Shown piece by piece: positions 15,987 to 32,000 of a stretch of DNA of 32,000 nt (positions are counted from its first letter, which is position 1; each line of letters begins with the position of its first letter). The DNA comes from Bellilinea caldifistulae (GTDB taxonomy: Bacteria > Chloroflexota > Anaerolineae > Anaerolineales > Anaerolineaceae), in contig NZ_LGHJ01000019.1 of the NCBI RefSeq assembly GCF_001306055.1, forward strand, positions 30,001 to 62,000, written 5' to 3'. A program made the position numbers and the translations under genes. The notes under the pieces were generated by a model, which was not told the origin of the DNA, did no database searches, and saw only the letters and a list, made by a program, of their open reading frames with translations.

Positions 15987-16055
15987 TTAACCGAGATTTT
16001 TCTAAATAATTTCCTCAAACGCTGCTTCCTCACTTTTCAAGGAGTGCCTCATCTG

Positions 16056-16448
16056 ATGACCGCGGGAAAGAGTATCCTTTACATCGAAGACAATTTTGAC
16101 AATCGAATGCTGGTTCGGCGTCTGCTGGAACATGAGGGCTTTTTGGTCTTGGAAGCCGAAAACGCCCATCAAGCTTTGGAGTTACTTCAAACTCGCATTC
16201 CGGATTTGATTCTGATGGACATCAATATGCCGGAAATTGACGGCTACACCCTCACCCGGCAAATCAAGACAGCTCCTCAAACCAGCCATGTGCCCGTAAT
16301 TGCCCTGACCGCCAATGTCATGCGCGGCGACAAGGAACGTACCTTGCGGGCGGGTTGCGACGGGTACATCGAAAAGCCCATTGACATTGACACTTTCATT
16401 GATCAGGTCAATCAATTTCTGAACGGTAATCGAGTCAAGCAGCTATGA
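16056..16448 (+). CDS. Stand-alone response-regulator receiver protein (CheY-like), RR1
   Basis: It carries the acidic pocket (IEDN), phospho-acceptor Asp (DLILMDINMPEIDG), T (ALTAN) and K (IEKPI), and has no output domain. I prefer ATG 16056 (AAGGAG at 16039-16044) over the track's GTG 16044, which overlaps the SD. Confidence 0.88.
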   Translation: MTAGKSILYIEDNFDNRMLVRRLLEHEGFLVLEAENAHQALELLQTRIPDLILMDINMPEIDGYTLTRQIKTAPQTSHVPVIALTANVMRGDKERTLRAGCDGYIEKPIDIDTFIDQVNQFLNGNRVKQL

Positions 16449-16906
16449 ACACAACCTCAAATCAAAATCCTCAAAAACCAGCCCCGGCCGCCGGTACCAC
16501 TGGCAGCCTGCTCAAAGATGTTACGGTTCTGGTGGTAGAAGATAATGTGTCCAACTTCGTGTTGATTGCCCGCATGCTAGGATTTTTAGGGATTCACTGC
16601 GAGTGGAAAACCTCCGGTTATGAAGTAGTCGAATTTGCGGATACGCTCCCCCGTTTGGATCTGATTTTGATGGATATTCGCCTTCCTTATGAGGATGGCT
16701 ATTCGGCTTTTAACAAAATCCGCCAATCTGAGCGATTCAAGAATGTTCCGGTAGTAGCCGTCACCGCTGAAGCCAGTCTGGAGCAAATGAACAAAGCCCG
16801 CAAAGCCGGCTTTGACGGCTTTTTGGGTAAACCACTCGATCCCGATCGCTTCCCCGATCAAATCCAGCGCATTCTGGCAGGTGAACCCGTCTGGGAAATG
16901 GATTAA
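16445..16906 (+). CDS. Stand-alone response-regulator receiver protein, RR2
   Basis: 153 aa. A ~25-aa unstructured N-terminus is followed by a complete receiver (VVEDN, DLILMDIRLPYEDG, AVTAEA, LGKPL). Its ATGA overlaps the RR1 stop. Confidence 0.88.
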   Translation: MNTTSNQNPQKPAPAAGTTGSLLKDVTVLVVEDNVSNFVLIARMLGFLGIHCEWKTSGYEVVEFADTLPRLDLILMDIRLPYEDGYSAFNKIRQSERFKNVPVVAVTAEASLEQMNKARKAGFDGFLGKPLDPDRFPDQIQRILAGEPVWEMD

Positions 16907-16916
16907 GGATTTTCTG

Positions 16917-19900
16917 ATGACTCTTCCATCTACCCCGTCCCGAAAATCTTCTCCCACTTTCTTCAAGCGAATCAGGCATAAGGCTCTATTATTTTTGTTC
17001 TTGCTGGCAGTTTTCCCCTTACTGCTCTCGGTTGCTTCCACCGTCCTTGCAGTATCTCTGCTGCCACCTGCAACAAGCGGACAAACTCCATGGATTTTGA
17101 TTCTTTCACAACCGGTATTTTGGGCAGGATCAGGGATCAGCCTGTTAATCGCTGCAGGGATCACCTGGCTGTTCATTCAGGTGTTCATCGTGCCGATAGA
17201 AAATCTCTCCACCCAAACCGAAAAACTCGCCAATGGGGATTGGAGTCAAAAGTTCACTGTTCAAAGCAAAGATGAAATTGGGAAACTGGCCTACGCTCTG
17301 AATCTGCTTCGCAATGAACTGGGACGAATGTACCGAAAAATTGAGTTACAGGCAATTTCTCAAAAAGCCGACCCATCTTCCGGGCTGGTTGAGTCTGGTT
17401 TAGACCTCACCGTTGAAGAGGACCGCCAGGAAAACTTCGACAGTGAGTTTTCCTTCGAACCGATTGAATTTGACCGCCAAGAGGAAAACCCGTTATATCA
17501 CGCCGCTCAAAAAATCAATCACGCCGGTGAAGAATCTCAGATTAATCAAATCCTCGACGAAACTCTATCCAAAATCGATTATGTTTCGGCATTCTTTGAC
17601 ATCTACCCCAATAATTTGCGTCTGATGCATCTCCTTGACCGGCAGGTGCGGTATACCGAAAAGTCCCTGAAAGGGACCGCCATTCAGATTGAAAACCCGC
17701 AAACTTTATTTTCGGGCAAAGATTGTATTATCCTCGAACAAAAAGAGGAAATCAGTGAACTTGTCAATCTGTTCACCCTCTTTGAAAATCGCAATTGCAA
17801 TTCCATCGCAATTTTCCCTTTACTGGTCAATCAACGGGTCGTCAGGCTGTTTGTCATTGGTTCGCGTAAGCCAACCCCGCTTTCGGCGGTGAACCTACAA
17901 CCCTTTATCCATTTATCTCATACCATCAGTGCGGTACTGGAAAAACTTGGCAGCATCCGCAGCCTTCGCAGTCAAATGTCTGCTTATGAGACCCTGACCA
18001 GCATCAGTCAGGCGATCAGCAATGAATTCAGCCTGCAACCTCTTTATCAGTTGGTGCACCAAAAGGTCAGTGAACAAATTGGTGCGGATTTATCTTTTTC
18101 CTTCGCTATTTACGATCAAGCCAATCAAATTATCCAGTTCCCCTATCACTACGAAGACGGGAAAGTGACTTCCATTCCACCCTTCCCGTTGGGTGAGGGT
18201 CTGACCTCCTATATCATTCAGAATCGAAAATCGCTGCTGCTGCCCTTAAAGTTTGAACCGAAAGACTTACCCGCCAGCTGGAACGCTTATAAATACATGT
18301 ATGCGGTTTCGGATGTTGAACGAGATGCCATGCGTTTAGGCGCAAAAATTGTTGGTAAGCCTGCCAAATCCTGGCTGGGTGTACCGCTGATGGTGGGCGG
18401 CCAGGTTCTTGGTGCAATCATCGTACAGGATACCCAAAAAGAAGAACGCTTTTCGGAAAAAGACCTGATTTTACTGGAGACAATTGCCCCCCAAATCGCC
18501 ATTTCCATCCGCAATGCACAGCTGGTTGAGAACATGACCTCAACTTTGCAAGCCTACGATCAGGAACACACCCTGCTGAATGCCTTGCTGGAAAACGTGC
18601 CGGAGAAAATTTACTTCAAAGATCAGGAAGGGCGTTATCTGCGGGTTTCCAATTCCTTTATTGCCAGCCTTGGATACTCCTCAGCCAGTGAGATTACCGG
18701 CTACACTGATGAAGAATTAATCCCCGGCGAGGCTGGCAACCTCCGCCATCAGCATGACATGCGAGTCATTTCCTCTGGTATTCCTGTTGTCGGCGAAATG
18801 GTCGAATATCATGCGGAAAATGGAGAAACGCTCTGGGAGCTAGTTTCCCGTGTTCCGCTATTTTCAAATGCGGACCCCGCCAATAAAAACCCCTATGCTT
18901 TGCTGGTGATTTCTCAGGATATCACCGAGTTGAAGAGAACCGAAAACCTGAGCAACCGGCAGGCCCAACAGCTGCTCACCGCTGCCGAGATTGCCCGCGA
19001 TGTGGCTTCCTCCCTGCAGACCGAACAAGTGCTGGTCAATGCGACTAACCTGATTCGCGAACGATTTGGTTATTACCACGCTTCGGTTTTCCTTGTGGAT
19101 CCGACAGGAAAATACGCGGTGTTACATGAAGCCTCCGGCGAGATCGGGCAGAAGATGAAAGCTGCCGGACACCGTCTGGCTGTTGGCTCTCGTTCACTGG
19201 TTGGGCAGGCCGTTGCCAAAGCCGAAACGGTTGTGTCCAACAATACCCGCCAAAATCCCAATTATTACCCCAACCCCCTCCTTCCAGATACCCATTCGGA
19301 ATTGGTTGTGCCTTTGAAAACCGCAAACCGTGTGATTGGTGCGCTGGATGTGCAAAGTGACCGGGTTAATGCCTTTACAACCGAGGACATTCACACGCTG
19401 GAAATCCTGGCAGATCAGCTGGCAATGGCATTGGAAAATGCCCATCTATACGCCCATGCGCAGGAAAATCTGGTCAAACATCGCTTACTCCATCAGATGA
19501 CCACCGCCGCTTCTACCAGCACGAACCTCAGTGAAGCGATCCAGAGAACGGTTTATAACCTGCGAACATCTCTGGGCGAGGAACGTGTAGCCTTTTATCT
19601 CGCTGATCAGAGCGGCAACCTGTTCCTGCATACCGCCATCGGATTTGAGGGATTGGAAATCAATCAGATCAACATCCAGAACAGCAAACATCTGCTGGCA
19701 ATTTCCGCCCGAGACCGCTATCCGGTGCGGGTTGGTCGTCTATCGTCGGGTGAGACCAATGTGACCATCCACCCGGAAACGCAATCTGCGCTGGCTGTTC
19801 CGATTCTTTTCTCGGATGAATTGCTTGGCGTTCTCACTGTGGAATCCGAGCAGGTGGATCGCTTCGACGAAAACGATCAGGAAATCATTGGCGCACTTGG

Positions 19901-20192
19901 CGACGCACTGGGTGCGATCCTCACCAATGCCCGTCTGGTGGATCAAATTCGCCAACAAGTTGAACGACAGCGGATGCTTTATGAAATCACCAGTAAAATT
20001 CGCCGTTCGGTTGATATCGAAACCATTCTTCGTACCTCGGTAAATGAAATTAGCAGGGCAGTCGGTGCACGCAAAGCCCATATCCAGATTAATCCAGGTG
20101 TTCAAAGTTCATCACGTGAGAGCCATGCTGCTTTAACATCCATCCCCGATGAACACAACAATGGTCACCACATTGAGGATAACGGCAAATGA
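16917..20192 (+). CDS. Membrane HAMP - GAF-like - GAF - PAS - GAF - GAF protein with no recognisable output domain (GAF-1)
   Basis: ATG 16917 has AAGGA 7 nt upstream. The track's 16812 start overlaps RR2 in another frame. There are two TM helices, then HAMP (~17180-17330, KDEIGKLAYALNLL). Next come a GAF-like region (~17500-17950), GAF (~17960-18540), PAS (~18560-18940, LLENVPEKIYFKDQEGRYLRVSN) and the signature GAF (18981-19451). A further GAF follows (~19480-19960), then a terminal helix/strand fragment. It has no HisKA, GGDEF, EAL, HD-GYP, cyclase or HTH motifs. Confidence 0.85.
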   Translation: MTLPSTPSRKSSPTFFKRIRHKALLFLFLLAVFPLLLSVASTVLAVSLLPPATSGQTPWILILSQPVFWAGSGISLLIAAGITWLFIQVFIVPIENLSTQTEKLANGDWSQKFTVQSKDEIGKLAYALNLLRNELGRMYRKIELQAISQKADPSSGLVESGLDLTVEEDRQENFDSEFSFEPIEFDRQEENPLYHAAQKINHAGEESQINQILDETLSKIDYVSAFFDIYPNNLRLMHLLDRQVRYTEKSLKGTAIQIENPQTLFSGKDCIILEQKEEISELVNLFTLFENRNCNSIAIFPLLVNQRVVRLFVIGSRKPTPLSAVNLQPFIHLSHTISAVLEKLGSIRSLRSQMSAYETLTSISQAISNEFSLQPLYQLVHQKVSEQIGADLSFSFAIYDQANQIIQFPYHYEDGKVTSIPPFPLGEGLTSYIIQNRKSLLLPLKFEPKDLPASWNAYKYMYAVSDVERDAMRLGAKIVGKPAKSWLGVPLMVGGQVLGAIIVQDTQKEERFSEKDLILLETIAPQIAISIRNAQLVENMTSTLQAYDQEHTLLNALLENVPEKIYFKDQEGRYLRVSNSFIASLGYSSASEITGYTDEELIPGEAGNLRHQHDMRVISSGIPVVGEMVEYHAENGETLWELVSRVPLFSNADPANKNPYALLVISQDITELKRTENLSNRQAQQLLTAAEIARDVASSLQTEQVLVNATNLIRERFGYYHASVFLVDPTGKYAVLHEASGEIGQKMKAAGHRLAVGSRSLVGQAVAKAETVVSNNTRQNPNYYPNPLLPDTHSELVVPLKTANRVIGALDVQSDRVNAFTTEDIHTLEILADQLAMALENAHLYAHAQENLVKHRLLHQMTTAASTSTNLSEAIQRTVYNLRTSLGEERVAFYLADQSGNLFLHTAIGFEGLEINQINIQNSKHLLAISARDRYPVRVGRLSSGETNVTIHPETQSALAVPILFSDELLGVLTVESEQVDRFDENDQEIIGALGDALGAILTNARLVDQIRQQVERQRMLYEITSKIRRSVDIETILRTSVNEISRAVGARKAHIQINPGVQSSSRESHAALTSIPDEHNNGHHIEDNGK

Positions 20193-21856
20193 ACTTCATC
20201 CGCCAAATTAATCCTGCCCATACCCCTCCTCACATCTCCCGTTTAGGGGAGCTAGCCACCTGGCGCGAGCGTATCTTACAGACTACACTCCTCCTGTTTG
20301 CGCTGGCAGGCACAGTGATTTACTACCTTGCCATACAACGGGCAATCCAATATCAAGACCGCACCTCAATTTACCTGTACACCGGGGCATTGCTGGTAGC
20401 GCTTGCTTTACCCCTCCTCAGAAAATTATCCTTCAACCTGCGTACCCTGGCAATTCTGGTCGTCCTGTATGGTTTGGCCGTTCAAAATCTGGTGGTTTAC
20501 GGCGTAACACGGAACGCGGTTGCCTATGTATTGGCCATTGTTTTCATCGCTGGACTTTTATGGGGGGTACGGGCTGGTGTTTTTGCCATCCTTTTCACCT
20601 TTGCCACGGTGGTGGGGATGGGCTACGGGATGAACTACGGGGGCATGAACCAGCCATTGCAGGAAACTCTATTGAATTCAATGAGTTTCGAAAACTGGGT
20701 CAATGTGGCAATTCATTTCAGCATCGTGGGCGGTTTCATTTTGCTGTCCATCTACACTATCTTGAACGGTTTACAAAGTTCATTGTTGCAACAACGAACC
20801 TTGACAATGCAATTGAACGCTGCCCGTCTGAACCTCGAAAAAAATGTGGAAGAACGAACCACAACCCTGAAGCGCCGTTTGAACCAGATACGTACCGCAG
20901 CAGAAATTGCCAGAGCAGTCAACACCTTTCTCGATCCCGAAACACTTCTCCAACAATCGGTTGACCTGATTCAAAAAGAATTTGATCTGTATTACGCCGG
21001 TATTTTTTTAGTGGATGAGCGCGGCGAATTTGCCGTCCTCAAAGCAGGCACAGGCGAAGCCGGCCGCCAGATGATTGCCGCCGGTCACAAACTGGCGGTT
21101 GGCGGAAACTCGATGATTGGCTGGGCAACAGCACGCAAAGAACCCAAAATTGCACTGGATACCGGGGTTGAAGCCGTCCGTTTCAACAATCCTTACTTAC
21201 CCCTAACCCGTTCTGAAATGGCACTACCCATTATCAGCCGCGGTGTCTGCTTAGGTGCCCTGACCATTCAATCTACCCAACCCGAAGCCTTCGATCAAGA
21301 TGATATTCGCATTTTGATGGGTATTGCCGATTCGCTCGCGACCGCCCTGGAAAATGCCCGCCTGTTTCAGGAAACCCAACAAAATCTTGAAGAGATCCGC
21401 GCACTCAACCGGGCTTACCTCATGCAATCCTGGGAAGACGCGGTTGCCATGCACGGCAAACTTGAGTACACCTACCAAAATCCCTCCGCCATTCAAGATG
21501 GAAAAGCATCTAACCAAATCCACATCCCCTTGACCCTTCGCGATCAGGCAATTGGTAACCTGACTCTTGAATTAGGCGATAAGAGCTTGACACCCGAAGA
21601 AATGGAATTTGTGGATGGGGTAATCAATCAAACCGCCATTGCTCTGGAAAATGCCCGCTTGATTCAGGAAACCCAACGTCGGGCAATGGAAGAGCAGCGC
21701 CTCAGTGAAATGACCGCTCAATTTTCGCGCGCAAATACCGTTGACCAGATTCTCAAAGCGGCTCTCCTTGAAATCGGTCACCTTCCCAATGTGGCTGAGG
21801 TGAGCGTCCAGTTAATTCCGCCGGTTGAAGATCAAATGGAGGAAGTTGAAGGATGA
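20189..21856 (+). CDS. Polytopic membrane domain - S-helix - GAF - conserved tail protein, no output domain (GAF-2)
   Basis: 555 aa. Its ATGA overlaps GAF-1, with GAGGA 9 nt upstream. A ~210-aa multi-TM N-terminus is followed by a coiled coil with an ERT motif (20852-20860). Then come the signature GAF (20897-21367) and the tail module (21368-21856). Confidence 0.85.
   Translation: MNFIRQINPAHTPPHISRLGELATWRERILQTTLLLFALAGTVIYYLAIQRAIQYQDRTSIYLYTGALLVALALPLLRKLSFNLRTLAILVVLYGLAVQNLVVYGVTRNAVAYVLAIVFIAGLLWGVRAGVFAILFTFATVVGMGYGMNYGGMNQPLQETLLNSMSFENWVNVAIHFSIVGGFILLSIYTILNGLQSSLLQQRTLTMQLNAARLNLEKNVEERTTTLKRRLNQIRTAAEIARAVNTFLDPETLLQQSVDLIQKEFDLYYAGIFLVDERGEFAVLKAGTGEAGRQMIAAGHKLAVGGNSMIGWATARKEPKIALDTGVEAVRFNNPYLPLTRSEMALPIISRGVCLGALTIQSTQPEAFDQDDIRILMGIADSLATALENARLFQETQQNLEEIRALNRAYLMQSWEDAVAMHGKLEYTYQNPSAIQDGKASNQIHIPLTLRDQAIGNLTLELGDKSLTPEEMEFVDGVINQTAIALENARLIQETQRRAMEEQRLSEMTAQFSRANTVDQILKAALLEIGHLPNVAEVSVQLIPPVEDQMEEVEG
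21344..21380 (+). repeat. 37-nt intragenic direct repeat, copy A (end of the signature GAF in GAF-2)
   Basis: GCCCTGGAAAATGCCCGCCTGTTTCAGGAAACCCAAC matches copy B at 34 of 37 positions. It encodes ALENARLFQETQ. Confidence 0.9.
21641..21677 (+). repeat. 37-nt intragenic direct repeat, copy B (end of the half-GAF in the GAF-2 tail)
   Basis: GCTCTGGAAAATGCCCGCTTGATTCAGGAAACCCAAC encodes ALENARLIQETQ. It lies 297 nt (99 codons) downstream of copy A, in the same frame. Confidence 0.9.
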
Positions 21857-23559
21857 GTCAAAATCTCCCCACCCGCCCCTACTCCTCTTTATCATCCGCA
21901 TTCAGCCGCGGAGGTGAAGTGGATGACCTGAGTGGCGCTCTCCAGCCCATTTTGAATCTCACCAGCGTACTCAGTCTGGCCGCCTACCTGTGGATTGCCT
22001 TTCAGAACGCCCTCACCCAACAGCCCCTCCTTCCACTGGCACTAGCTCCGCTGCTCGCACTCCTCCTGCTGGTTACTTTTCGTCAAAGCTTTTCAACCTC
22101 TTTACGGACTGGCTTCCTGATAATCTTTTATTTGCTGGTTGGTTTCGCCTTATTTTTACTTGGAGAGATGCAAAGCATTGGACTTCTCCTTTTCCTGACC
22201 GCGGTTCAAGTTGCCCTTATATTCTGGAATGGAAAAGCGGGCATGACCACTTTCTTGGTTAGTCTGGCACTCATTCTGACGGCGGGTATTTCTCTCCATT
22301 TTGGGTTGCTGAAACCATTTGGTCTGGGAACTCAATCCCTTGAACTCGTACCTTTCATCGGATTGATTGCGGCTTTCGTCCTTTCCAATTGGGTTTTGGC
22401 CATGATTTCCGGACACCTTCTCAAGGTTTACAACAGGGCAGCTTCTTCTGAAAAAGAACTCTCCCAAATTCTGGATGAAGAAAGAAAAAACCTGGAAGCG
22501 CGCATCGAAGAACGCACCCGGCTACTTACCCGGCAAACCAGCCTGATGGAAACCGCCGGTGAGATTGCCCACCAAATCTCAATGGAAACCAGTCAGGAAA
22601 ATCTTTTCCGTAATACCATTCAACTGATTCGCGACCGTTTGGGATACTATCACGCTGGCATTTTCCTCATGGACGATACAGATGAGTATGCCGTACTGGT
22701 TTCTGCGCTGGGAGAAGCGGGTGAGAAGATGCTCGCCCAAGGTCACCGCCTTAAAAAAGGCGAGGAAGGTATTGTCGGAAACGTGGTTGCCCGTGGAGAG
22801 GCGCGCATTGCTTTGGACGTCGGCAAGGATGCAGTCCACTTCAAGAATCCGCTCTTGCCTTACACCCGCTCTGAAATTGCCCTTCCCATCAAGATTGGAG
22901 ATCGAGTGCTCGGCGCATTAGATATTCAATCTACCGAGCCGGAAGCGTTCTCACAGGTGGATATTCAATCGCTTCAAATTATTGCCAATCAACTGGCAGT
23001 GGCATTGGAACGCATCCGACTGATTGACCAGCTTCAACAAACTGTAGCCGATTTGGAAAGCGGGTACCGCACCGAAACCCGCAAGTCCTGGCGGATGTAC
23101 ATCCGCAGTAGTCGTAAAACCCGCGGTTTTCGCTATGATCCTGATCGTAAGCAAGTTGAACCAATTCCCGTTGTGAAAAATCCTTCACAATCTTTATCGG
23201 ATGCCCAAACGGTACAGGTGCCGCTGCACAGCCGAGGTGAAGTGATCGGGGTGCTCAATATTAAGTTCAAAGGCGGGCAGCCGTCTCCTGAAATTCAGCG
23301 GCTTCTTCACACAACTGCAGAACGGTTGGGTTCAGCTCTGGAAACCGCCCGTTTGTTGGAGGAATTACAACTCCGTGCCGAGAGAGAACATCTGGTAGGC
23401 GATCTTGCCACACAGGTACGCTCCAGTACCGATTTCGAACAAATTCTTAAGACAACCGCCCAGCAAATCAGACAAAAACTGGGTTTACGCGAAGTAACTG
23501 TCCAGATTCTTCCTTCGCAAGAGATACAGCATGGGGATTATCCACTGGAGGTTTCATGA
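21853..23559 (+). CDS. Polytopic membrane domain - S-helix - GAF - conserved tail protein, no output domain (GAF-3)
   Basis: 568 aa. Its ATGA overlaps GAF-2, with GGAGGA upstream. The plan matches GAF-2: ERT at 22510-22518, signature GAF at 22555-23025, tail at 23026-23559. Confidence 0.85.
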   Translation: MSQNLPTRPYSSLSSAFSRGGEVDDLSGALQPILNLTSVLSLAAYLWIAFQNALTQQPLLPLALAPLLALLLLVTFRQSFSTSLRTGFLIIFYLLVGFALFLLGEMQSIGLLLFLTAVQVALIFWNGKAGMTTFLVSLALILTAGISLHFGLLKPFGLGTQSLELVPFIGLIAAFVLSNWVLAMISGHLLKVYNRAASSEKELSQILDEERKNLEARIEERTRLLTRQTSLMETAGEIAHQISMETSQENLFRNTIQLIRDRLGYYHAGIFLMDDTDEYAVLVSALGEAGEKMLAQGHRLKKGEEGIVGNVVARGEARIALDVGKDAVHFKNPLLPYTRSEIALPIKIGDRVLGALDIQSTEPEAFSQVDIQSLQIIANQLAVALERIRLIDQLQQTVADLESGYRTETRKSWRMYIRSSRKTRGFRYDPDRKQVEPIPVVKNPSQSLSDAQTVQVPLHSRGEVIGVLNIKFKGGQPSPEIQRLLHTTAERLGSALETARLLEELQLRAEREHLVGDLATQVRSSTDFEQILKTTAQQIRQKLGLREVTVQILPSQEIQHGDYPLEVS

Positions 23560-26501
23560 ATATCGGATACCAGAGCAATTTGATGAGGATAATCTCGCAA
23601 GAAGGCGTCGAGCCAGCGTATCGCCGTGATCGCTTTGCTGCCGGCGTGGCTCGGCTTGCTGCCATTATTCTTGGAATTACAAGTGTCATCTTCCTGCTAA
23701 CATCCTTCAATCAACCTTACTGGCAAATCTTTACTCTTACATTTTTTAGCGCGGGCGGCTTTCTTGCATCTCTTTTCGCCGCTACTTTTCCTGAGAAAGA
23801 AGCCGCCGAAAAGCGCACCTACCTGCTTGCTCCAACGCTTTCAATAAGTGCCATTGCTTTCAGTGCTCTCATTGTCAATGTCGCTTTGCCTTTGGCAATC
23901 ATCCTCTTTTTGGTATTGACTCTTCTGGTCACCGGTTCCCTTGAAGGTCAACGAAGGGATACCGGTATCTCTCTGGCTTTCTTTTCAGCACTGACGGCTG
24001 TCATCGCCGGCAACTTTTTACCTGTCTCGCAAGTCAGGTTGCCGCAGATTGAATTGTTCATTCCGGTATTGTTGGGCATCTTAATGATGGTTTATATCAT
24101 CTTGTTGATGCTGGAAGTTCTTTCCGCCACATTACGCATCAAACTGCTGACAATTTCACTGGCAATTGCCATTGTCCCATTACTGGTCATCTCGATTATC
24201 AATTCGCGTTTCTTTCAGGATGCTCTGCGTAATCAGACCAATCAAGTCCTTCTTCTTGCAGCCCAGCAGACTGCTTCTAAAGTCGATTCGTTCTTTGAAG
24301 AAAACAAACAATCCATTGCCAGTGAAGCTTCTCTGGCTGTATTTTCGAACTACCTTTCGCTTTCGCCTTTGTACCGCCCTAACAGTACCCAGGAAGTGGC
24401 AGCTACTCTGACCTTGCGTTCGTTATCTTCCCGTCAACAGCGCTTTCTGCGTTCTTATGGTTTGGTTGATGCGGAAGGCAAAGCCGTTCTGGATATTAAT
24501 CCTCTTCAAATCGGGCAAGACGAATCTCAAAACGAGTACTTTACACTCCCGCTCACAACTGGGCAGGTTTATGCCTCACCTGTAATTTTTGACCCGAGAT
24601 CTCGGAATGGATATATCTATTTCTCAAGCCCGGTACGGAATCAACGCCAGCAGGTAATCGGTGTTTTGCGCGCTAAATTTGACGCCCTGATCTTGCAGGA
24701 ATTACTGGAGCAAGAGGTAAATTTGGTGGGCATCCGTTCCTACCCAATCTTGCTCGATGAGAATTATTTGCGTCTGGCCGATACGCTCATTCCCAACAGT
24801 ATTTATAAACTGGTCATGCCGCTGCCTTCGGACGTGATGGGAAAATTGATTCAATCCAATCGTGTTCCGAATTTACCACTTTACGAAATGAGCACCAATG
24901 ATGTTGCCCTCTCGGCAGGTTTGGAAAACTATTTGAACTCCCCCTTCTTTACTGCAGAATTTCACCCGGATGATCCCAGCCATCCTGAAATTGGTGCCAT
25001 CACTCGCTTGAAAACCAACCCGTGGTATGTGGTCTTTGTCCGCGAACAGACTACTTTTGCCGGCTTAGTCGCACGGCAAGGCCGCTTATCCATCTTAATT
25101 TCTACCTTGATTGCTGGGTTGGTGGGGTTAATTGCCAGCGTGGTTTCCGGCTCGTTTAGCCGGCCGATTGTTCGTTTGCAGCAAACTGCAGAGCTGATCT
25201 CCTCCGGTGAGCTGGATGCACAGGCGCAGGTAGAAACCGGTGATGAGATTGGAAAACTGGCTCAGGCATTCAATTTTATGACCAACCAGTTGAAGAACCT
25301 GATCAACACGCTGGAAGACCGGGTTCGAGAGCGAACCCGTGAACTCGCCCAACAAAATGAGGCATTGCTCTACAGGACACGCCAGTTGCAAACCGTTTCG
25401 GATGTAGCCCGCGGTATCGTTTCGACCCAAAAACTGGAAAGTCTGCTGAACCAGCTCACCATCCTGATCAGCGAACGATTTGGGTTTTATCACGTGGGCG
25501 TTTTCTTGTTGGACGAACAGAAGGAATACGCCGTTCTGCGAGCAGCAAACTCAGAAGGCGGTAAACGGATGCTTGCTCGCCAGCACCGGCTCAAGGTCGG
25601 TCAGGTTGGTATTGTGGGTTATGTAACCGGTAGCGGAGAAGCCCGTATCGCCACTGATGTTGGTAAAGACGCAGTCTTCTTCAACAATCCCGATTTACCT
25701 CAAACCCGATCCGAAATGGCACTCCCCCTCAAAGCAAACAACGAGGTGATCGGCGCTCTGGATGTGCAAAGTACAATACCCAACGCCTTCACCCAGGAAG
25801 ACGTTGAATTATTCAGCATCCTGGCTGATCAAATTGCCATCGCCATCCTCAATAACCGGCTCTACACCGAAACCCTGCAAGCGCTGGAGGAATCTCAACG
25901 CGTTCACCGGCTTTACCTGCGTCAGGAATGGAGCAAAGAAGCCGGAGAACGACCGGTAATTGGCTATCGGGCAACACCTCATGGTTTGATTGCATTGGAA
26001 GAGATGCGCGAACAGGAAATTTCCGATGTGCTGCTCTCCGGAGATGTTATCGTCCGCCCGGCAAAGGAAAGTCAACCGGCGGCATTATCGGTTCCGGTCA
26101 GGCTGAGAGGTGAAACCGTTGGGGTGATTCACATTGAAGATGATCAAATTGCCGATCGGGTTTGGAGTGAAGAAGAAATTCGTTCCATTCAGGCAGTTGC
26201 TGATCAGGTTGGGCTGGCTCTGGAAAATGCGCGTTTGCTGGAAAAGACCATCCGTCGCGCTGAGCGCGAGCGCCGCGTTTTGGAAATCACCAGCAAGATC
26301 CGCTCCACAAATGACCCGAACACGATGATCGAGATTGCCATTCAAGAATTGAAACGCACTTTGAATGCCAGCCATGCTCAAGTCATATGGAAAGATACTG
26401 GTGAAGAAACCACACCTCCACAACAGCAGAGCAATGAACCATCCACTCTACAAAAACGGAATAACGGATCAAACGGTTCGAGCAGGAAGGGGCAGGTATG
26501 A
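23556..26501 (+). CDS. Multi-TM - Cache-like extracytoplasmic domain - HAMP - S-helix - GAF - conserved tail protein, no output domain (GAF-4)
   Basis: 981 aa. Its ATGA overlaps GAF-3, with GGAGG 5 nt upstream. About 6 N-terminal TM helices are followed by a ~290-aa Cache-like region (24215-25080, ..GLVDAEGKAVLD..DESQNEYF..GYIYFSSPV..VIGVLRAKF). Then come a TM, HAMP (25158-25300, GDEIGKLAQAFNFM), ERT (25329-25337), the signature GAF (25395-25865) and the tail (25866-26501). Confidence 0.85.
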   Translation: MNIGYQSNLMRIISQEGVEPAYRRDRFAAGVARLAAIILGITSVIFLLTSFNQPYWQIFTLTFFSAGGFLASLFAATFPEKEAAEKRTYLLAPTLSISAIAFSALIVNVALPLAIILFLVLTLLVTGSLEGQRRDTGISLAFFSALTAVIAGNFLPVSQVRLPQIELFIPVLLGILMMVYIILLMLEVLSATLRIKLLTISLAIAIVPLLVISIINSRFFQDALRNQTNQVLLLAAQQTASKVDSFFEENKQSIASEASLAVFSNYLSLSPLYRPNSTQEVAATLTLRSLSSRQQRFLRSYGLVDAEGKAVLDINPLQIGQDESQNEYFTLPLTTGQVYASPVIFDPRSRNGYIYFSSPVRNQRQQVIGVLRAKFDALILQELLEQEVNLVGIRSYPILLDENYLRLADTLIPNSIYKLVMPLPSDVMGKLIQSNRVPNLPLYEMSTNDVALSAGLENYLNSPFFTAEFHPDDPSHPEIGAITRLKTNPWYVVFVREQTTFAGLVARQGRLSILISTLIAGLVGLIASVVSGSFSRPIVRLQQTAELISSGELDAQAQVETGDEIGKLAQAFNFMTNQLKNLINTLEDRVRERTRELAQQNEALLYRTRQLQTVSDVARGIVSTQKLESLLNQLTILISERFGFYHVGVFLLDEQKEYAVLRAANSEGGKRMLARQHRLKVGQVGIVGYVTGSGEARIATDVGKDAVFFNNPDLPQTRSEMALPLKANNEVIGALDVQSTIPNAFTQEDVELFSILADQIAIAILNNRLYTETLQALEESQRVHRLYLRQEWSKEAGERPVIGYRATPHGLIALEEMREQEISDVLLSGDVIVRPAKESQPAALSVPVRLRGETVGVIHIEDDQIADRVWSEEEIRSIQAVADQVGLALENARLLEKTIRRAERERRVLEITSKIRSTNDPNTMIEIAIQELKRTLNASHAQVIWKDTGEETTPPQQQSNEPSTLQKRNNGSNGSSRKGQV

Positions 26502-27280
26502 CTTATTTTATTTCCATCACAAACGAAAAAGGCGGAGTTGCCAAAACGACTACAGCGCTCTCTCTGGGTGCAGCCCTGGTTGAAGCGGGGCGGCAGGTGT
26601 TGCTGGTTGATTTGGACGCTCAGGCCAATCTAACCCTCGCACTGGGAACGGATCCCCTCAACGGACATGCAACCATTCTGAACGCCGTTGCCGATCAATC
26701 TCCCATCCATAAACTATGGCGGGAAACCGGTATTCCGGGTTTATTTTTTATCCCTTCCAATCATGATATGGGCTATAGCGAACGAATTTTGCCCGCCCGT
26801 CCCGAATATGAATTTACCCTGAAAAAGGCGTTTTCCGAAATCTCGCTGCCGTTTGATTATGTAATATTTGACTGTCCCCCCTTTTTGGGTTCCGTGGTGA
26901 TTAATGCCCTGACCGCGTCGCAATTACTCATCATTCCTACGCAGGCAGAGTACTTTTCCATTTATGCCTTGAAAAACATGATGAGTTTAATCCGCCGCAT
27001 TCGCTCGCAAACCAATCCCGATCTCACCTACCGGCTTTTACTCACCATGTTTGATCGCCGCAACCGCATCCATCGAACCCTGAGTGAACAGTTACGTGCA
27101 AGTTTTGGCAATGGTGTGCTGGAAACCGTCATCATGGTGGATACCCGTCTGCGGGAAAGTTCCATTGCCGGTCTGCCGATTATCTACCATGCTCCCAAAA
27201 GCCGTTCTGCTTTGCAATACCGCGAATTAGCCCAGGAGATCCTGCAATATGTCGAAAAAGCAATTGCTCAACCGGCTTGA
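26498..27280 (+). CDS. ParA/MinD-family P-loop ATPase (orphan; no ParB in the window)
   Basis: 260 aa. It has the deviant Walker A (NEKGGVAKTTT), Walker A' (LLVDLDAQANLT) and Walker B (YVIFDCPP). Its ATGA overlaps the GAF-4 stop. Confidence 0.88.
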   Translation: MTYFISITNEKGGVAKTTTALSLGAALVEAGRQVLLVDLDAQANLTLALGTDPLNGHATILNAVADQSPIHKLWRETGIPGLFFIPSNHDMGYSERILPARPEYEFTLKKAFSEISLPFDYVIFDCPPFLGSVVINALTASQLLIIPTQAEYFSIYALKNMMSLIRRIRSQTNPDLTYRLLLTMFDRRNRIHRTLSEQLRASFGNGVLETVIMVDTRLRESSIAGLPIIYHAPKSRSALQYRELAQEILQYVEKAIAQPA

Positions 27281-30200
27281 CCATCTCTTTGCCAACATTA
27301 CGGAAGATGCCGCCGAGCAGATTCCTCCCCCTCCACCCCCACCGACGGTTCTGCCACAATGGAAGTGGGAAACAGACGAAAGCGGCTGCATTATTTTCTG
27401 TGAAGATGCCATAAAGGTTTGCCTGGGTTACTCACCGGATGAGATCATCGGTCAACCCTTATCTTCATTTGGGTTGAGCAGTGAATCGGTTACTGCATTG
27501 CAAAATGCCTTAAATCAGGATGTGTTTCCCATTGATTTGTCCGTCGTATTTCAATCCAAAAGCGGTAACCCTGTACCAGCCCGTCTGACCATCTTCAAAA
27601 AAGGCGCATTAAACGGCGAGAAGGGCGGTTTTCGTGGTTTTACCCAACCCTTGTTAGAGAGCAAGCCGGTAAAACCTCAATCAGAGAATGAGGACATTCC
27701 GAAAACCCAATTTGCCAGCCAGCAAACAACCCCAAGCGCAAGAAAAACGCCAGTCAGGGCTCCGATTCAGCCAAAAGCCCAAAAAGCCGCCCCTCCTTCG
27801 GTCAGACCTCGTTCAAAATCTATTCTTGAAAACCCGGCCATCATCACCGTTCCTTTGAAAAAGAGGCAACAAGAAATCGGCATTCTTGAAATCATGGCCG
27901 ATGGCGTACAACGCCGTTGGAGCGAAGAAGAATTACTACTGGTACAGGAAGTTGCCAATCAACTTGGCCTTGCAATCGAAAATGCAGAATTGTATGCTGC
28001 TGTTCAACAGGAACTCAACGAGAGAGTTCGCGCCGAACAAGAGATTTTACGCCGCAACAAAGATCTCGCTGCTCTGAATGAGATTGGTCAGCAAATCTCG
28101 CGTCTGACCGATAAAGATCAGATCATTGCCACCTTACAGCAAGCGCTTGTGCAACTGTTGAACTGCCGCAATTTGACCATTGCGATGCTGGATTCCGATC
28201 AGCAAACCCTGACTTTTCCCGTGCATACCGTTGATTCAAACTCTCAACCCTTACCCCCCAGGCCACTTGGAGATGACCTGATCAGTTATGTCGTTCACAG
28301 CCGGGAGGTTTTACGCATCAATCGGGATGTGGCAAACGCCTTATCTGCCAGAAAAATTATCCCCGATCAACCCATTCCTGCTGCTCTTCTTGCCGTCCCA
28401 ATGGTCACCGCCGAAAAGGTTATGGGTGTCATTTACCTTCAAGAGTTTGAGCAGGGTGCTGGTTTTTCAGATATTCAAGCAGACTTGCTTTCCACAATTG
28501 CCTCTCAGGTAGCCATTGCTCTGGCAAACGCCAATCTCTTCCAGGAAGTTACCACCGCCCTGCAAGCCATCGAAAAACGTGAACGCTATCAGGCTAACGT
28601 GGCTCAGGCAGTTGCCACATTGACTGAAAGCGGCGTTCGCGGTATTCCCGCCATGTTGGGCTTCCTTGGCGAAGCAGCCCAATGCGATTACATCTACTTT
28701 GCCAGTGCACGGGAAGACGAACAGGGCTTGCACTGGATCGTTACCGACCATTGGATTGCCCCTCAAATCCGCCCCGGTTCTGATCTGGTCGTACGGCAGC
28801 CGCTTTCTGCCGCTTTGTTCCCTAACTGGGCCTCAGCGTTGAAAGAGAAAGGCTGGTTTTCCGGTCAGCCTGAAGATTTCGAAGGGCGTGAACGCGAGTT
28901 CCTCCGTCAGCGCGGTATTCACTCCATCCTTTTACTGGCTGTACCGGGTAATCGCGATATTCCCAGTTTTATCGCATTCGAACAAAGGACTGCCCGAGCC
29001 TGGAAAAATGATGAAATCGGCGTGTTACAGGTGGCGGCAGATGCACTGGCGAACACGTTCGTCCGCCAAGACCTGCTGGAACAATTGCGATCCTCGCTGG
29101 ATGAGACCGAAACGCTGTATAAAATCAGCCATAATCTGGCTTTGGCGGGTGATTACCACGAGATGGTGCGCGCCATTGCCGGCGGGATCACCGATGAAAA
29201 GGTGAATCGCATTGTATTGGTTCTGTTTGAACAATCCGATCCATTAAGTACCCCACTCCTGCGAATTGCTGCAACGTGGCACTCAGGAAGAGGTGCCCAT
29301 CCCCCGTTGATTGGTACCGAATTGGATTACGCCACCTACAATCCGCTGGTTTCAATTGAAACCCCCGCTTTTTATAACGATATCTATGATTTAGGAATTT
29401 TGCCCGCCGCCCGTTCGGCACTGGAAGAGTTAAATGTACGCTCGATTGCGGTTTTACCCCTTTGGGCTGCTCGCAAACAATTAGGTGCTTTACTCTTTCT
29501 TTCAGAAGGGTTGCATTACTTTACGATACGTGAGATGCGCACCTTCCCGCCACTCGTGGATCAGATGGCTACCGCCATCGAGAACATGCGCCTGTTCGAA
29601 CAAACTCAGGCAGCCCTTGCCGAAACCGAACTTTATTACCGGATCAGCAGCGGCATTGCGCAAGCAGGTGATGCCAACGACTTGGTTGATCTGGTAATGA
29701 CCGAAATTCTGCCAGCCAACGCAGAACGGGTGTCCATCATCCAGATGTTCAACGACCCAAACGGTGTGCCGCTGGAATTTGAGGTCGTTGCCAGCACCTC
29801 GGTCAGCGGTAACACGGAACTGGCTAATATTCGCCAATCCATCAATCATTTACCGATTCTCAAGGAATTGCGGGAAGAACCGATTGTATTGGATAATCTT
29901 GAAAATAGCCGGTTGGATTCCCTTTCTAAACAAACCCTGAAACAGATGGGGGTTGCTTCGGGTATTTTTGTGCCATTGTTCAGCGCCGGAAAAATTGTTG
30001 GTATTCTGGCAGCCACTTCCAGTCAACCCGCCAGTTACGACATGGAAGAGGTACGTGTGCTGAATGTGGCGAGCAGTGGTGTGGCAGTAGCGTTAGAAAG
30101 ACAACGCCTTCTCAAAGAAGCCCAGCGCCGCGCCCTTGAACTTCAAGCTGCTGCCGAAATTGCCCGCGATACCACGAGCGTCCTTTCTCAAGATGAATTG

Positions 30201-32000
30201 CTCAACCGGATCGTCAATCTCCTTCGCGAGCGATTCGGTTTTTACCACACTGCCATCTTTTTGGTCAACGACGAAGGCACCCACGCCATTATTCAGCAAG
30301 CCAGCGGAATGGGCGCCCAGGAAGTCATGCGAAGCAATCAAAAGATTGCGGTCGGCTCCCGCTCGATTATTGGCAAAGTAACCGATACTGGCAGTCCGGT
30401 GCTGGTCAATAATGTTGCTGAAAGCCCTATCTACCTTCCCAATCCGCACCTGCCCGAAACACGCTCGGAGTTGGGCATTCCCCTGCGTATTGCTGACCGT
30501 ATCATCGGCGCCTTGGATATTCAATCCGAACGTCCGAATGCCTTTCAGGAAGACGATCTGGGAGTGTTCCAGATTCTGGCTGATCAGATTGCAGTGGCCA
30601 TTGAAAATGCCCGCGCCTACGAGCTGGCTCAAAAAGCCTATCAGGAAATGCGCGAAGTTGACCGCTTGAAGTCTCAATTCCTCGCCAATATGAGCCATGA
30701 ATTGCGAACACCCCTCAATTCGATTATTGGCTTTTCGCGGGTCATCCTCAAAGGGATTGATGGCCCGATCAACGACCTCCAGAGACAGGATCTCACCTCG
30801 ATCTACAACTCCGGTCAGCACTTGCTCGGCCTGATCAATGATGTCCTTGATCTTTCCAAAATCGAAGCCGGAAAAATGGAGCTGCAATTCGAGGAAGTGA
30901 ACATTGCTGATTTGGTCAATTCTGTCATGTCCACGGCTGTGGGGTTGGTAAAAGACAAGCCCATCAAACTCAATCATCAAGTGGAACCTGATTTACCGGT
31001 TGTAATTGCCGATAACACCCGCATCCGTCAGGTTTTGCTCAACTTTATCTCCAATGCGGCAAAATTCACCGATGCCGGCTCCATCACCGTGGAAGCCAGG
31101 AAATCTCTCAGCCCTGATAACAAACCTGAGGTCATGGTCATTGTTACCGACACAGGCCAGGGAATTGACGAGAAAGGACGGGAAAAATTATTCCTGCCGT
31201 TCTCTCAAGTGGATGATTCTCCCACCCGCAAAACTGGTGGAACCGGCCTGGGTCTGTCCATTTCCCGCTCCTTTATTGAACTACATGGCGGTCGGATTGG
31301 CTTGTTATGGAGTGAAGTGGGTAAAGGCAGCGCCTTCTACTTCACCCTGCCGGTTCAGCAGCCAGCCAAACAGACCAGCGAACTTAAATCGGATGAGATT
31401 TTATCCAAAACCGAAAAAGTGATTCTGGCCATTGACGATGACCCGCAAGTCATAAAACTATACGAACGCTTTTTACAAACCAGTGGTTACAAAGTCGTTC
31501 CGCTCACTCAGCCAAAACTTGCCGTTGAAAAAGCCAAATCTCTCAAACCTTTTGCAATCACCCTGGATATTATGATGCCTGAGGTAGATGGTTGGCAGGT
31601 CATTCACGCCTTGAAGAATGATCCCCAAACTAAAGATATTCCGGTCATTATTTGCAGCATTCTGGAAGAGGAAGAAAAAGGATTTAGTCTGGGCGCAGCC
31701 GATTATCTGGTTAAACCTTTCCTTCAGGAAGATCTGGTCAATGCGGTTTACCGCCTGAACCGCCAAAACCGAATTCATCGCATTCTGGTTGTGGATGATT
31801 CGCTGGAAGATCAGCGTCTGATTCAGAAAACACTTGCGGAGCAAAAGAATTTTGAGATCTTCGCCGCATTCGATGGTGAAAAAGCCTTGCAGATGATTCA
31901 CAATATCAAACCAGATGCGGTCATTTTGGATCTCTTCATGCCGGGATTGGATGGTTTTCAGTTATTGGAGAAAATTCGAACCGCTCCCGAATACCGTAAC
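27249..32000 (+). CDS. Soluble PAS / multi-GAF hybrid sensor histidine kinase with two C-terminal receiver domains (3' end outside the window)
   Basis: This gene is NOT in the supplied ORF track. I translated the frame of nt 27249 by hand to nt 32000 and found no stop. An in-frame TAG lies at 27228-27230, AGGAG at 27234-27238, and the ATG at 27249. Domains: PAS-like (~27350-27620), half-GAF (27843-27995), 4 GAF/GAF-like modules (~28080-30110) and the signature GAF (30150-30620). The kinase core has the H-box MSHELRTPLNSI (His codon 30696-30698), N-box VLLNFISNAAKFT, G1 DTGQGI and G2 GGTGLGLSIS (to ~31360). REC1 has Asp codon 31566-31568 and REC2 has Asp codon 31929-31931. I saw no TM segment. 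Confidence 0.9.
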   Translation, partial: MSKKQLLNRLDHLFANITEDAAEQIPPPPPPPTVLPQWKWETDESGCIIFCEDAIKVCLGYSPDEIIGQPLSSFGLSSESVTALQNALNQDVFPIDLSVVFQSKSGNPVPARLTIFKKGALNGEKGGFRGFTQPLLESKPVKPQSENEDIPKTQFASQQTTPSARKTPVRAPIQPKAQKAAPPSVRPRSKSILENPAIITVPLKKRQQEIGILEIMADGVQRRWSEEELLLVQEVANQLGLAIENAELYAAVQQELNERVRAEQEILRRNKDLAALNEIGQQISRLTDKDQIIATLQQALVQLLNCRNLTIAMLDSDQQTLTFPVHTVDSNSQPLPPRPLGDDLISYVVHSREVLRINRDVANALSARKIIPDQPIPAALLAVPMVTAEKVMGVIYLQEFEQGAGFSDIQADLLSTIASQVAIALANANLFQEVTTALQAIEKRERYQANVAQAVATLTESGVRGIPAMLGFLGEAAQCDYIYFASAREDEQGLHWIVTDHWIAPQIRPGSDLVVRQPLSAALFPNWASALKEKGWFSGQPEDFEGREREFLRQRGIHSILLLAVPGNRDIPSFIAFEQRTARAWKNDEIGVLQVAADALANTFVRQDLLEQLRSSLDETETLYKISHNLALAGDYHEMVRAIAGGITDEKVNRIVLVLFEQSDPLSTPLLRIAATWHSGRGAHPPLIGTELDYATYNPLVSIETPAFYNDIYDLGILPAARSALEELNVRSIAVLPLWAARKQLGALLFLSEGLHYFTIREMRTFPPLVDQMATAIENMRLFEQTQAALAETELYYRISSGIAQAGDANDLVDLVMTEILPANAERVSIIQMFNDPNGVPLEFEVVASTSVSGNTELANIRQSINHLPILKELREEPIVLDNLENSRLDSLSKQTLKQMGVASGIFVPLFSAGKIVGILAATSSQPASYDMEEVRVLNVASSGVAVALERQRLLKEAQRRALELQAAAEIARDTTSVLSQDELLNRIVNLLRERFGFYHTAIFLVNDEGTHAIIQQASGMGAQEVMRSNQKIAVGSRSIIGKVTDTGSPVLVNNVAESPIYLPNPHLPETRSELGIPLRIADRIIGALDIQSERPNAFQEDDLGVFQILADQIAVAIENARAYELAQKAYQEMREVDRLKSQFLANMSHELRTPLNSIIGFSRVILKGIDGPINDLQRQDLTSIYNSGQHLLGLINDVLDLSKIEAGKMELQFEEVNIADLVNSVMSTAVGLVKDKPIKLNHQVEPDLPVVIADNTRIRQVLLNFISNAAKFTDAGSITVEARKSLSPDNKPEVMVIVTDTGQGIDEKGREKLFLPFSQVDDSPTRKTGGTGLGLSISRSFIELHGGRIGLLWSEVGKGSAFYFTLPVQQPAKQTSELKSDEILSKTEKVILAIDDDPQVIKLYERFLQTSGYKVVPLTQPKLAVEKAKSLKPFAITLDIMMPEVDGWQVIHALKNDPQTKDIPVIICSILEEEEKGFSLGAADYLVKPFLQEDLVNAVYRLNRQNRIHRILVVDDSLEDQRLIQKTLAEQKNFEIFAAFDGEKALQMIHNIKPDAVILDLFMPGLDGFQLLEKIRTAPEYRN

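Follow-up and report, generated by a model that had tools for sequence, protein, structure and literature searches.

A conserved signalling locus of filamentous Anaerolineae combining output-less membrane GAF proteins, a ParA-like ATPase and a soluble hybrid histidine kinase

Chemosensory arrays positioned by a ParA homologue, such as those of Vibrio (ParC/ParP) and Rhodobacter (PpfA/TlpT), combine many receptors of variable input with one conserved signalling module and a single soluble kinase. To our knowledge, every receptor array known to be positioned by ParA belongs to a chemotaxis-type system. The partners of ParA/MinD ATPases are reported to bind the ATPase via a charged N-terminal peptide, ParA partners are normally a cargo or a cargo adaptor, and gene neighbourhood predicts the cargo (PMC10241942). 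Here we describe a locus of Bellilinea caldifistulae that is laid out on a similar plan. It lies in a 32,000-nucleotide stretch of DNA (contig NZ_LGHJ01000019.1, positions 30,001 to 62,000; the window), and encodes two single-domain receivers, four membrane GAF proteins that lack an output domain (the sensors), a ParA/Soj-like ATPase and a soluble hybrid histidine kinase. The gene cluster is real and is conserved across filamentous Anaerolineae. It has apparently not been described previously: the first-pass annotation of this DNA, made from the letters without database searches, knew of no system of this composition, and our full-text literature searches likewise found no description of the locus. 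We consider it an evenly balanced proposition that the locus encodes a multi-sensor two-component signalling complex which ParA distributes by means of a tag on the kinase.

Open reading frame (ORF) listing and translation gave eight plus-strand ORFs between 16056 bp and the window end, and the gene calls were identical in the source record (GCA_001050215.2, DF967971.1). The first two genes, g1 (RR1; 16056 bp–16448 bp) and g2 (RR2; 16445 bp–16906 bp), encode single-domain receivers of 130 and 153 amino acids (Pfam Response_reg, E 5e-30 and 2e-20 respectively), the second with a 25 amino acid N-terminal extension. These are followed by the sensor genes g3 (16917 bp–20192 bp), g4 (20189 bp–21856 bp), g5 (21853 bp–23559 bp) and g6 (23556 bp–26501 bp), by g7 (26498 bp–27280 bp), which encodes the 260 amino acid ParA/Soj-like ATPase (Pfam AAA_31, E 1e-46), and by the kinase gene g8, which begins at 27249 bp and runs past 32000 bp and the window end. 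Five ATGA overlaps were present, at 16445 bp, 20189 bp, 21853 bp, 23556 bp and 26498 bp; g2 and g3 are separated by a 10-nucleotide gap (16907 bp–16916 bp) and the ATG of the kinase lies 32 nucleotides within the ParA gene. The first-pass annotation had reported eight densely packed plus-strand genes with these overlaps and this gap, all of which the ORF listing confirmed. Its span, however, started from the GTG at 16044 bp, where the g1 ORF opens. An AAGGAG sequence at 16039 bp–16044 bp, 5′ of the ATG at 16056 bp, makes that ATG the most likely start of g1. The whole locus extends approximately 9 kb past the window end.

The order of two receivers, four GAF sensors, ParA, kinase and a further gene, encoding a ThrC-like pyridoxal phosphate (PLP) enzyme fused to a receiver domain (ThrC-like-REC), was kept in L003, a Bellilinea metagenome-assembled genome (g5 52% identical), in L004, an uncultured Thermanaerothrix (47%), and in L005/L006, of which L005 is a 1.86-Mb metagenome contig (39%). 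The 32-nucleotide overlap was the same in L003, L004 and L005. As gene order and overlap recur in relatives down to approximately 40% identity, the close packing is not due to chance. Synteny had been put forward by the first-pass annotation as a check, and the gene set proved to be strongly syntenic across Anaerolineae. When metagenomes were scanned with a ParA profile, 80 loci were obtained, among them an internal control. Wherever enough flanking DNA was present, loci with a ParA at least 44% identical to g7 encoded up to five proteins ending in the C-terminal stub described below, no more than 10 kb upstream of ParA, and on its downstream side a kinase or GAF protein. The 45 loci with a ParA of 40% identity or less to g7, which serve as the control, encoded neither a stub-ended protein nor a kinase and had no ThrC-like gene. 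Five stub-ended proteins, which were chosen by homology and not by context, were looked up and all five fell in such clusters. The scan of genome contigs with the single ParA sequence gave close Bellilinea relatives only, so the breadth reported here comes from look-ups of encoding contigs and from the metagenome scan. All source names on the matches were Anaerolineae or Chloroflexota.

Clusters differed in their sensors, of which there are four here and from three to at least seven elsewhere (seven in L018), with inputs of MASE11, dCache, CHASE4, 4HB_MCP, HAMP or PAS type. Gene order was rearranged in L019, L100, L044 and L046, while L101 showed seven GAF genes in a row on an incomplete contig with ParA and kinase not in view. 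Identity to the window proteins was 74–82% for RR2, 63–83% for ThrC-like-REC, 62–75% for RR1, 52–77% for ParA, 53–67% for an EamA-family transporter encoded after ThrC-like-REC, 48–69% for the kinase and 30–69% for the sensors. The locus thus has a conserved core and diverging sensors, which is a core-and-periphery pattern. Between sensors and kinase, L019 (12944 bp–18501 bp) and L100 (12935 bp–13729 bp) also carried one to four Methyltransf_19 (PF04672) genes, which may serve an adaptation-type modification, and a gene for a 161 amino acid helical protein that the N-terminus of the L019 kinase resembles.

Analysis of the sensors confirmed the input hardware that had been read from their sequences, namely transmembrane (TM) segments in all four, HAMP in g3 and g6 and a dCache_1 domain in g6. 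Sensor g3 (1091 amino acids) has two TM segments, HAMP, two GAF domains, PAS, a particular GAF domain that we have designated GAF-S, a further GAF and the stub, and has no transmitter. In g4 (555 amino acids) a MASE11 membrane domain (Pfam E 7e-21) is followed by an S-helix, GAF-S, a reduced GAF and the stub. Six TM segments, a long helix, GAF-S, a reduced GAF (MOD2) and the stub make up g5 (568 amino acids), and g6 (981 amino acids) is composed of multiple TM segments, dCache_1 (E 2e-15), a TM segment, HAMP (E 1e-11), GAF-S, MOD2 and the stub. The build of g6 and g3 gave weak NCBIfam matches to NarQ and NarX. No kinase, cyclase, phosphodiesterase or DNA-binding domain was found in g3–g6 with Pfam or NCBIfam. 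An AlphaFold2 (AF2) model of g5, built from a 53-sequence alignment (pLDDT 82), showed a TM bundle, a long helix, a full GAF, a four-stranded reduced GAF and a terminal helical hairpin. Compared with the PDB by Foldseek, this model matched GAF domains exclusively, its neighbours being the small-molecule-binding GAFs of PtsP, cAMP-binding Lcd1 and fRMsr. Modelled separately with AF2, the C-terminal 159 residues (pLDDT 89) had no significant structural match (best E 0.03, to GAF/PHY fragments). With GAF-only matches and a tail without a structural match, the sensors appear to be without output by predicted fold as well as by sequence. The first-pass annotation's reading that the four GAF proteins carry no output, for which it had suggested profile and structure searches, holds on this evidence, and an output domain hidden in the tails was ruled out by Pfam, NCBIfam, the two AF2 models and Foldseek.

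Sensor g5 had 688 homologues at E ≤1e-3. Profile hidden Markov models (HMMs) of GAF-S, MOD2 and the stub (TAIL) were built from the g5 family. GAF-S was located at 18969 bp–19448 bp in g3, 20882 bp–21370 bp in g4, 22543 bp–23025 bp in g5, 25383 bp–25862 bp in g6 and 30138 bp–30617 bp in the kinase, all on the plus strand. It scored 172–264 bits in these five proteins, the other GAF domains of which scored below 35 bits. The motif F.NP.LP.TRSE and H298 of GAF-S were invariant across paralogues and genomes. TAIL, of approximately 45 amino acids, was found at 19950 bp–20090 bp (g3), 21674 bp–21814 bp (g4), 23368 bp–23508 bp (g5) and 26253 bp–26384 bp (g6), again on the plus strand. Its consensus, RAERE.lv..is.kvRss.d.d.ILrTt..ElG..LG..ev.VQL, was kept together with the stop position in 116 distinct sequences. 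All output-less proteins, here and in L003, L004, L005, L018 and L019, ended in GAF-S followed by MOD2 or a full GAF and then by TAIL. By the same HMMs, GAF-S of the kinases ran straight into HisKA and TAIL was never present. Alignment of TAIL by hhalign with the first 60 amino acids of GAF-S gave a probability of 90.7% (E 1.3e-6), the homology covering residues 1–56 of GAF-S, compared to 0.3% with the kinase DHp domain, and AF2 predicted TAIL to be a helical hairpin. Homologous by profile to the start of GAF-S and unrelated to DHp, TAIL is a conserved truncated GAF stub, and the proposal that it is a degenerate DHp domain minus its histidine was rejected.

Proteins of a different kind also carried this stub. 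The giant proteins P0400–P0549, of 1.5–3.9 thousand residues, contained 10–21 GAF domains of this subfamily in tandem, repeating approximately every 175 amino acids, and many of them likewise ended in MOD2 and the stub, approximately 30 residues or less from the C-terminus, so that they too appear to be without output. Complementation of a split GAF, between the sensor stub and an orphan beta-beta-alpha piece of the kinase N-terminus (g8 residues 187–249), was not supported, as an exhaustive profile search showed the orphan-piece unit to match merely the GAF–GAF junctions of the giant tandem-GAF proteins. The orphan piece was also missing from the L019 kinase and from the L019 sensor that follows ParA. 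Counts from the exhaustive search (10,307 at E 1e-30 or better) were inflated by generic tandem GAFs and were therefore not used for family size.

The position of the stub, which sits where the kinase has its DHp domain, bears on a different account of the sensors. According to this they would be transmitter-less decoys that heterodimerise with, and inhibit, the kinase or membrane kinase paralogues, as RetS does with GacS, in place of an array of receptors that activates it. L044 and L100 retain an additional membrane (dCache-)HAMP-GAF-HisKA-HATPase_c kinase of the same build, which makes the sensors look like kinases minus the transmitter. We nevertheless think decoys improbable: the hhalign result argues against a DHp origin of the stub, the kinase of this locus is soluble and has many more GAF domains than the sensors, and the sign of the regulation is not readable from sequence.

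The kinase, in which the preferred reading of a ParA-distributed sensor–kinase complex converges, has a full length of 1634 amino acids. It consists of a PAS domain, five GAF domains of which the last is GAF-S, HisKA (from 30669 bp), HATPase_c (to 31358 bp) and two receivers (31422 bp–31748 bp and from 31791 bp). GAF-S directly precedes the phospho-acceptor helix. By eye, the H-box reads SHELRTPL and the DD, D, T/S and K residues are present in both fused receivers. A hydropathy scan of g8 detected no TM segment; together with the HisKA and HATPase_c matches, this agrees with the earlier statement that the last protein is the sole transmitter and lies outside the membrane. A multi-step phosphorelay had also been suggested. 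HisKA, HATPase_c, two fused and two free receivers were all found as this supposes, but the relay as written was unsupported, and since no HPt domain was found in the locus genes scanned the system is not a classical His-Asp-His-Asp relay.

The ThrC-like-REC gene (L001 15677 bp–17365 bp) starts 20 nucleotides past the kinase stop, approximately 170 nucleotides beyond the window end, and encodes 562 amino acids, with a Cys4 ribbon at the N-terminus and a receiver at the C-terminus. The gene was immediately 3′ of the kinase in L001, L003, L004, L005, L019, L022, L032, L036, L037, L052, L056 and L100, and was approximately 70% identical across Anaerolineae genera. The best NCBIfam model was PRK08197 at 246 bits, below the threonine synthase cut-off of 303. 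The PLP lysine (SFKDR) and the ASTGN loop are retained, and a serine is present where canonical enzymes have the arginine of N-P-x-R-I-E-G-Q-K-T, a residue that binds the substrate phosphate. The EamA-family transporter gene that follows is conserved next to the kinase together with the enzyme. Downstream of it, on the minus strand and convergent, are genes for a 533 amino acid REC-kinase and an OmpR-type regulator (L001 18342 bp–20722 bp), a pair that was also present in L032 and L037, with 37–42% identity in distant clusters. ThrC-like-REC, EamA and the REC-kinase with its OmpR regulator all recurred in distant clusters and are likely outputs of the system, of which the REC-kinase and OmpR regulator could be the transcriptional branch. 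If so, ThrC-like-REC, with an exporter encoded beside it, would be unusual in being an amino-acid-type enzyme that a two-component system controls directly.

The conserved enzyme and exporter pair beside the kinase could also be explained if the sensors and the kinase do not interact, and the five GAF-S domains instead bind one diffusible ligand that is possibly tied to the ThrC-like enzyme and EamA, the membrane proteins then being sinks or using another partner. This would suit the GAF-S residues that are invariant across paralogues and genomes, and the small-molecule-binding GAFs of PtsP, Lcd1 and fRMsr among the structural neighbours. We judge it unlikely, as an input module and a GAF domain alone, partnerless, cannot relay a signal, and as genes so tightly coupled in translation and kept in a fixed order suggest a complex. 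Additionally, the dCache domain of g6, read by eye, is without the R-x-W-Y portion of the motif for amino-acid binding.

The closest PDB sequences to g7 were a ParA family protein (8RAY) and Soj. The deviant Walker A motif (KGGVAKTT) is intact and was invariant, together with D38/D40 (A′) and D125 (B), in 36 orthologues. The g7 sequence ‘VDTRLRES’ aligned with Soj ‘PRNVRLAEA’, a MinD-like amphipathic C-terminus was not seen by eye, and a separate minCDE set is encoded upstream in the window. No ParB adjoins g7 and no parS is present, the gene 3′ of g7 being that of the kinase; the AAA_31 match and the lack of an adjacent ParB thus confirmed the orphan ParA-like ATPase recognised earlier. Both the intact catalytic residues and the conserved linkage with putative cargo genes that characterise ParA/MinD cargo systems were found.

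The kinase begins with a basic, ParB-like peptide (MSKKQLLNRLDHLFAN; 27249 bp–27296 bp, plus strand), a candidate ParA-interaction tag, whose first 32 nucleotides are shared with the 3′ end of the ParA gene. The kinase start, MSKKQLLNRLDHLF, was conserved wherever the kinase follows ParA. The motif [RKQ][LIV][EDKNQ]x[LIM][FL] was present in 38 of the 42 distinct genes 3′ of system ParAs versus none of 40 controls, and the peptide typically ends RL(D/E)xLF. In L019 and L046 the gene that follows ParA encodes a membrane GAF sensor, and here it was the sensor that carried the tag, starting M(M/T)D.DL..R(V/L)EGLFSD; the N-terminus of the L019 kinase was unrelated to the tag peptide. The basic peptide therefore tracks the position after ParA, not the kinase. 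Given this conserved peptide and the published rule for N-terminal peptides (PMC10241942), the kinase, or the complex containing it, is most likely the ParA partner. Its N-terminal peptide is a concrete, testable candidate for a ParA ‘luggage tag’.

In control loci the position after ParA was occupied by ParB starting KKRGLGRGLDALL, and in others by FtsZ with an N-terminal extension such as RRASMREGPLAELFR. ParA-like ATPases 35–38% identical to g7 were directly followed, often with an overlap, by FtsZ in L059, L060, L062, L063, L068, L079, L081, L089, L090, L092, L094, L096 and L099, the FtsZ assignment being confirmed by Pfam in three. The FtsZ extension (KKKRLARGFSKII, RRASMREGPLAELFR or SMKDGLSELFRR) resembled the ParB peptide, and on this resemblance the arrangement in the control loci looks like a ParA–FtsZ pairing through an N-terminal tag.

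These FtsZ loci, which couple related ParA-like ATPases with FtsZ proteins of similar N-terminal peptide, raise the question of whether ParA is itself the regulated output and not a positioning device. The sensors and kinase would then switch the ParA ATPase through the N-terminal peptide and so act on nucleoid organisation, septum placement or the growth zones of the multicellular filament. The locus is also divergent to mreB-mreC-mreD-PBP2-minCDE-rodA in the window, L003 and L004. This neighbourhood was, however, missing in L005 and L018, known ParA partners are normally a cargo or adaptor (PMC10241942), and outputs bearing receivers (RR1, RR2, ThrC-like-REC and the REC-kinase with its OmpR regulator) are co-conserved with the locus. 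We therefore give ParA as the output little credence.

According to our preferred reading, that of a multi-sensor two-component complex distributed by ParA, the sensors would modulate the soluble kinase by hetero-oligomerising via the common S-helix/GAF-S module. Nucleoid-bound ParA would take the N-terminal peptide of the kinase as a partner tag and would distribute or position the sensor–kinase complexes along long filamentous cells, while phosphate would pass from the kinase to RR1, RR2, ThrC-like-REC and the pair of REC-kinase and OmpR regulator. More tentatively, the stub-ended GAF proteins may form a new class of transmitter-less receptor that assembles with a soluble, GAF-containing histidine kinase into a membrane-associated complex through GAF domains and S-helices. 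This would be the GAF equivalent of a chemoreceptor array, distributed by a dedicated ParA along the multicellular filaments via the ParB-like tag of the kinase, and its outputs would include a PLP enzyme, encoded next to a metabolite exporter, that is directly controlled by phosphorylation. If this is true, the enzyme and exporter could serve cell-to-cell signalling, and at least 116 distinct output-less proteins, annotated as ‘GAF domain-containing proteins’, would gain a function in bacteria that are dominant but little studied in the environment and in digesters.

Several points weigh against the complex distributed by ParA. The locus has five receivers and no HPt domain, and the model assigns no role to the conserved stub. 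The conserved GAF-S pocket could mean that the five proteins bind one small ligand independently. DNA binding by g7 is read from a single aligned arginine (Soj ‘NVRL’), g7 scored below every NCBIfam subfamily cut-off, and the taxonomic range rests on names attached to some of the matches. As for chance adjacency of these genes, or sensors that are decaying truncated kinase genes, the missing transmitter and nothing further speaks for either, and both are effectively refuted by the conservation data, with stop position and stub sequence kept in the 116 sequences and gene order and overlaps kept in dozens of loci against a clean negative control.

Upstream of the locus, the space between mreB and g1 is 380 nucleotides long and holds an independent tRNA-Gly(CCC) gene (15790 bp–15862 bp) with its own promoter (a perfect TTGACA-17-TATAAT, 15749 bp–15777 bp) and terminator (a hairpin followed by a T-run, approximately 15887 bp–15930 bp). 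As this unit occupies the space, the space was rejected as a leader of the signalling operon. An Rfam scan for riboswitches and leaders yielded two tRNAs only, and a promoter and terminator scan gave counts no higher than chance, the single perfect promoter being that of tRNA-Gly. An anti-phage defence system was also rejected, there being no PADLOC model match and two marginal receiver-type hits only. The morphogenesis and division cluster mreB-mreC-(mreD)-PBP2-minC-minD-(minE)-rodA is on the minus strand at 8086 bp–15664 bp, divergent to the signalling locus; this adjacency was kept in L003 and L004 and absent in L005 and L018. Further upstream, glnS and gltX (minus strand, 4694 bp–8068 bp) flank a tRNA-Gln(CTG) gene at 6440 bp–6512 bp.

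The first-pass annotation had drawn a parallel with chemosensory arrays in which GAF domains replace the methyl-accepting chemotaxis protein (MCP) hairpin and CheW is absent. The parallel fits insofar as a conserved core is combined with fast-evolving sensors of variable number. Like those arrays, the locus has CheY-like single-domain receivers, an in-cluster ParA/MinD ATPase and a candidate partner that starts with a charged peptide (PMC10241942). It does not belong to the MCP–CheW–CheA systems: no MCPsignal domain (PF00015) was found in g3–g6 with Pfam or NCBIfam, the 4HB_MCP input domain in one relative being the only related match, and CheW, a CheA-type kinase, CheR, CheB and Hpt were not found in the locus genes scanned, as had been stated for CheW and the MCP hairpin. 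In contrast to chemosensory arrays, the kinase is a HisKA-type hybrid, the shared module is a GAF domain with a truncated GAF, and the tag is on the kinase itself.

Of the other systems compared, the stressosome (RsbR paralogues, RsbS and RsbT) similarly has paralogous sensors with divergent N-terminal inputs, a common C-terminal assembly domain and one soluble kinase. It differs from this locus, which has no STAS domain, a histidine instead of a serine kinase, membrane sensors and a ParA. The convergence of several sensors on one kinase by protein contact and not by phosphotransfer alone, as proposed here, is reminiscent of the RetS/GacS/LadS multikinase networks, although those partners keep DHp and catalytic domains whereas g3–g6 have neither and their stub is not DHp-like. 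NarX/NarQ-type kinases (TM, HAMP, S-helix, GAF-like, DHp and catalytic (CA) domain) share the HAMP to S-helix to GAF order with g6 and g3, and complete kinases arranged in this way are retained in variant clusters; g3–g6, unlike NarX/NarQ, are entirely without DHp and CA. ParABS and McdAB resemble the locus in gene order, a deviant Walker A ATPase being encoded first and a protein with a basic N-terminal peptide next. Unlike in ParABS, no ParB adjoins the ATPase here, ParB being found only beside the control ParAs at 40% identity or less, and the putative partner is a signalling kinase or GAF sensor, where those systems have a ParB that binds DNA or an adaptor of the carboxysome. A GAF-based equivalent of the ParA-positioned chemosensory arrays would, if demonstrated, mean that a layout with many receptors, a single soluble kinase and a tag for ParA has arisen repeatedly in evolution.

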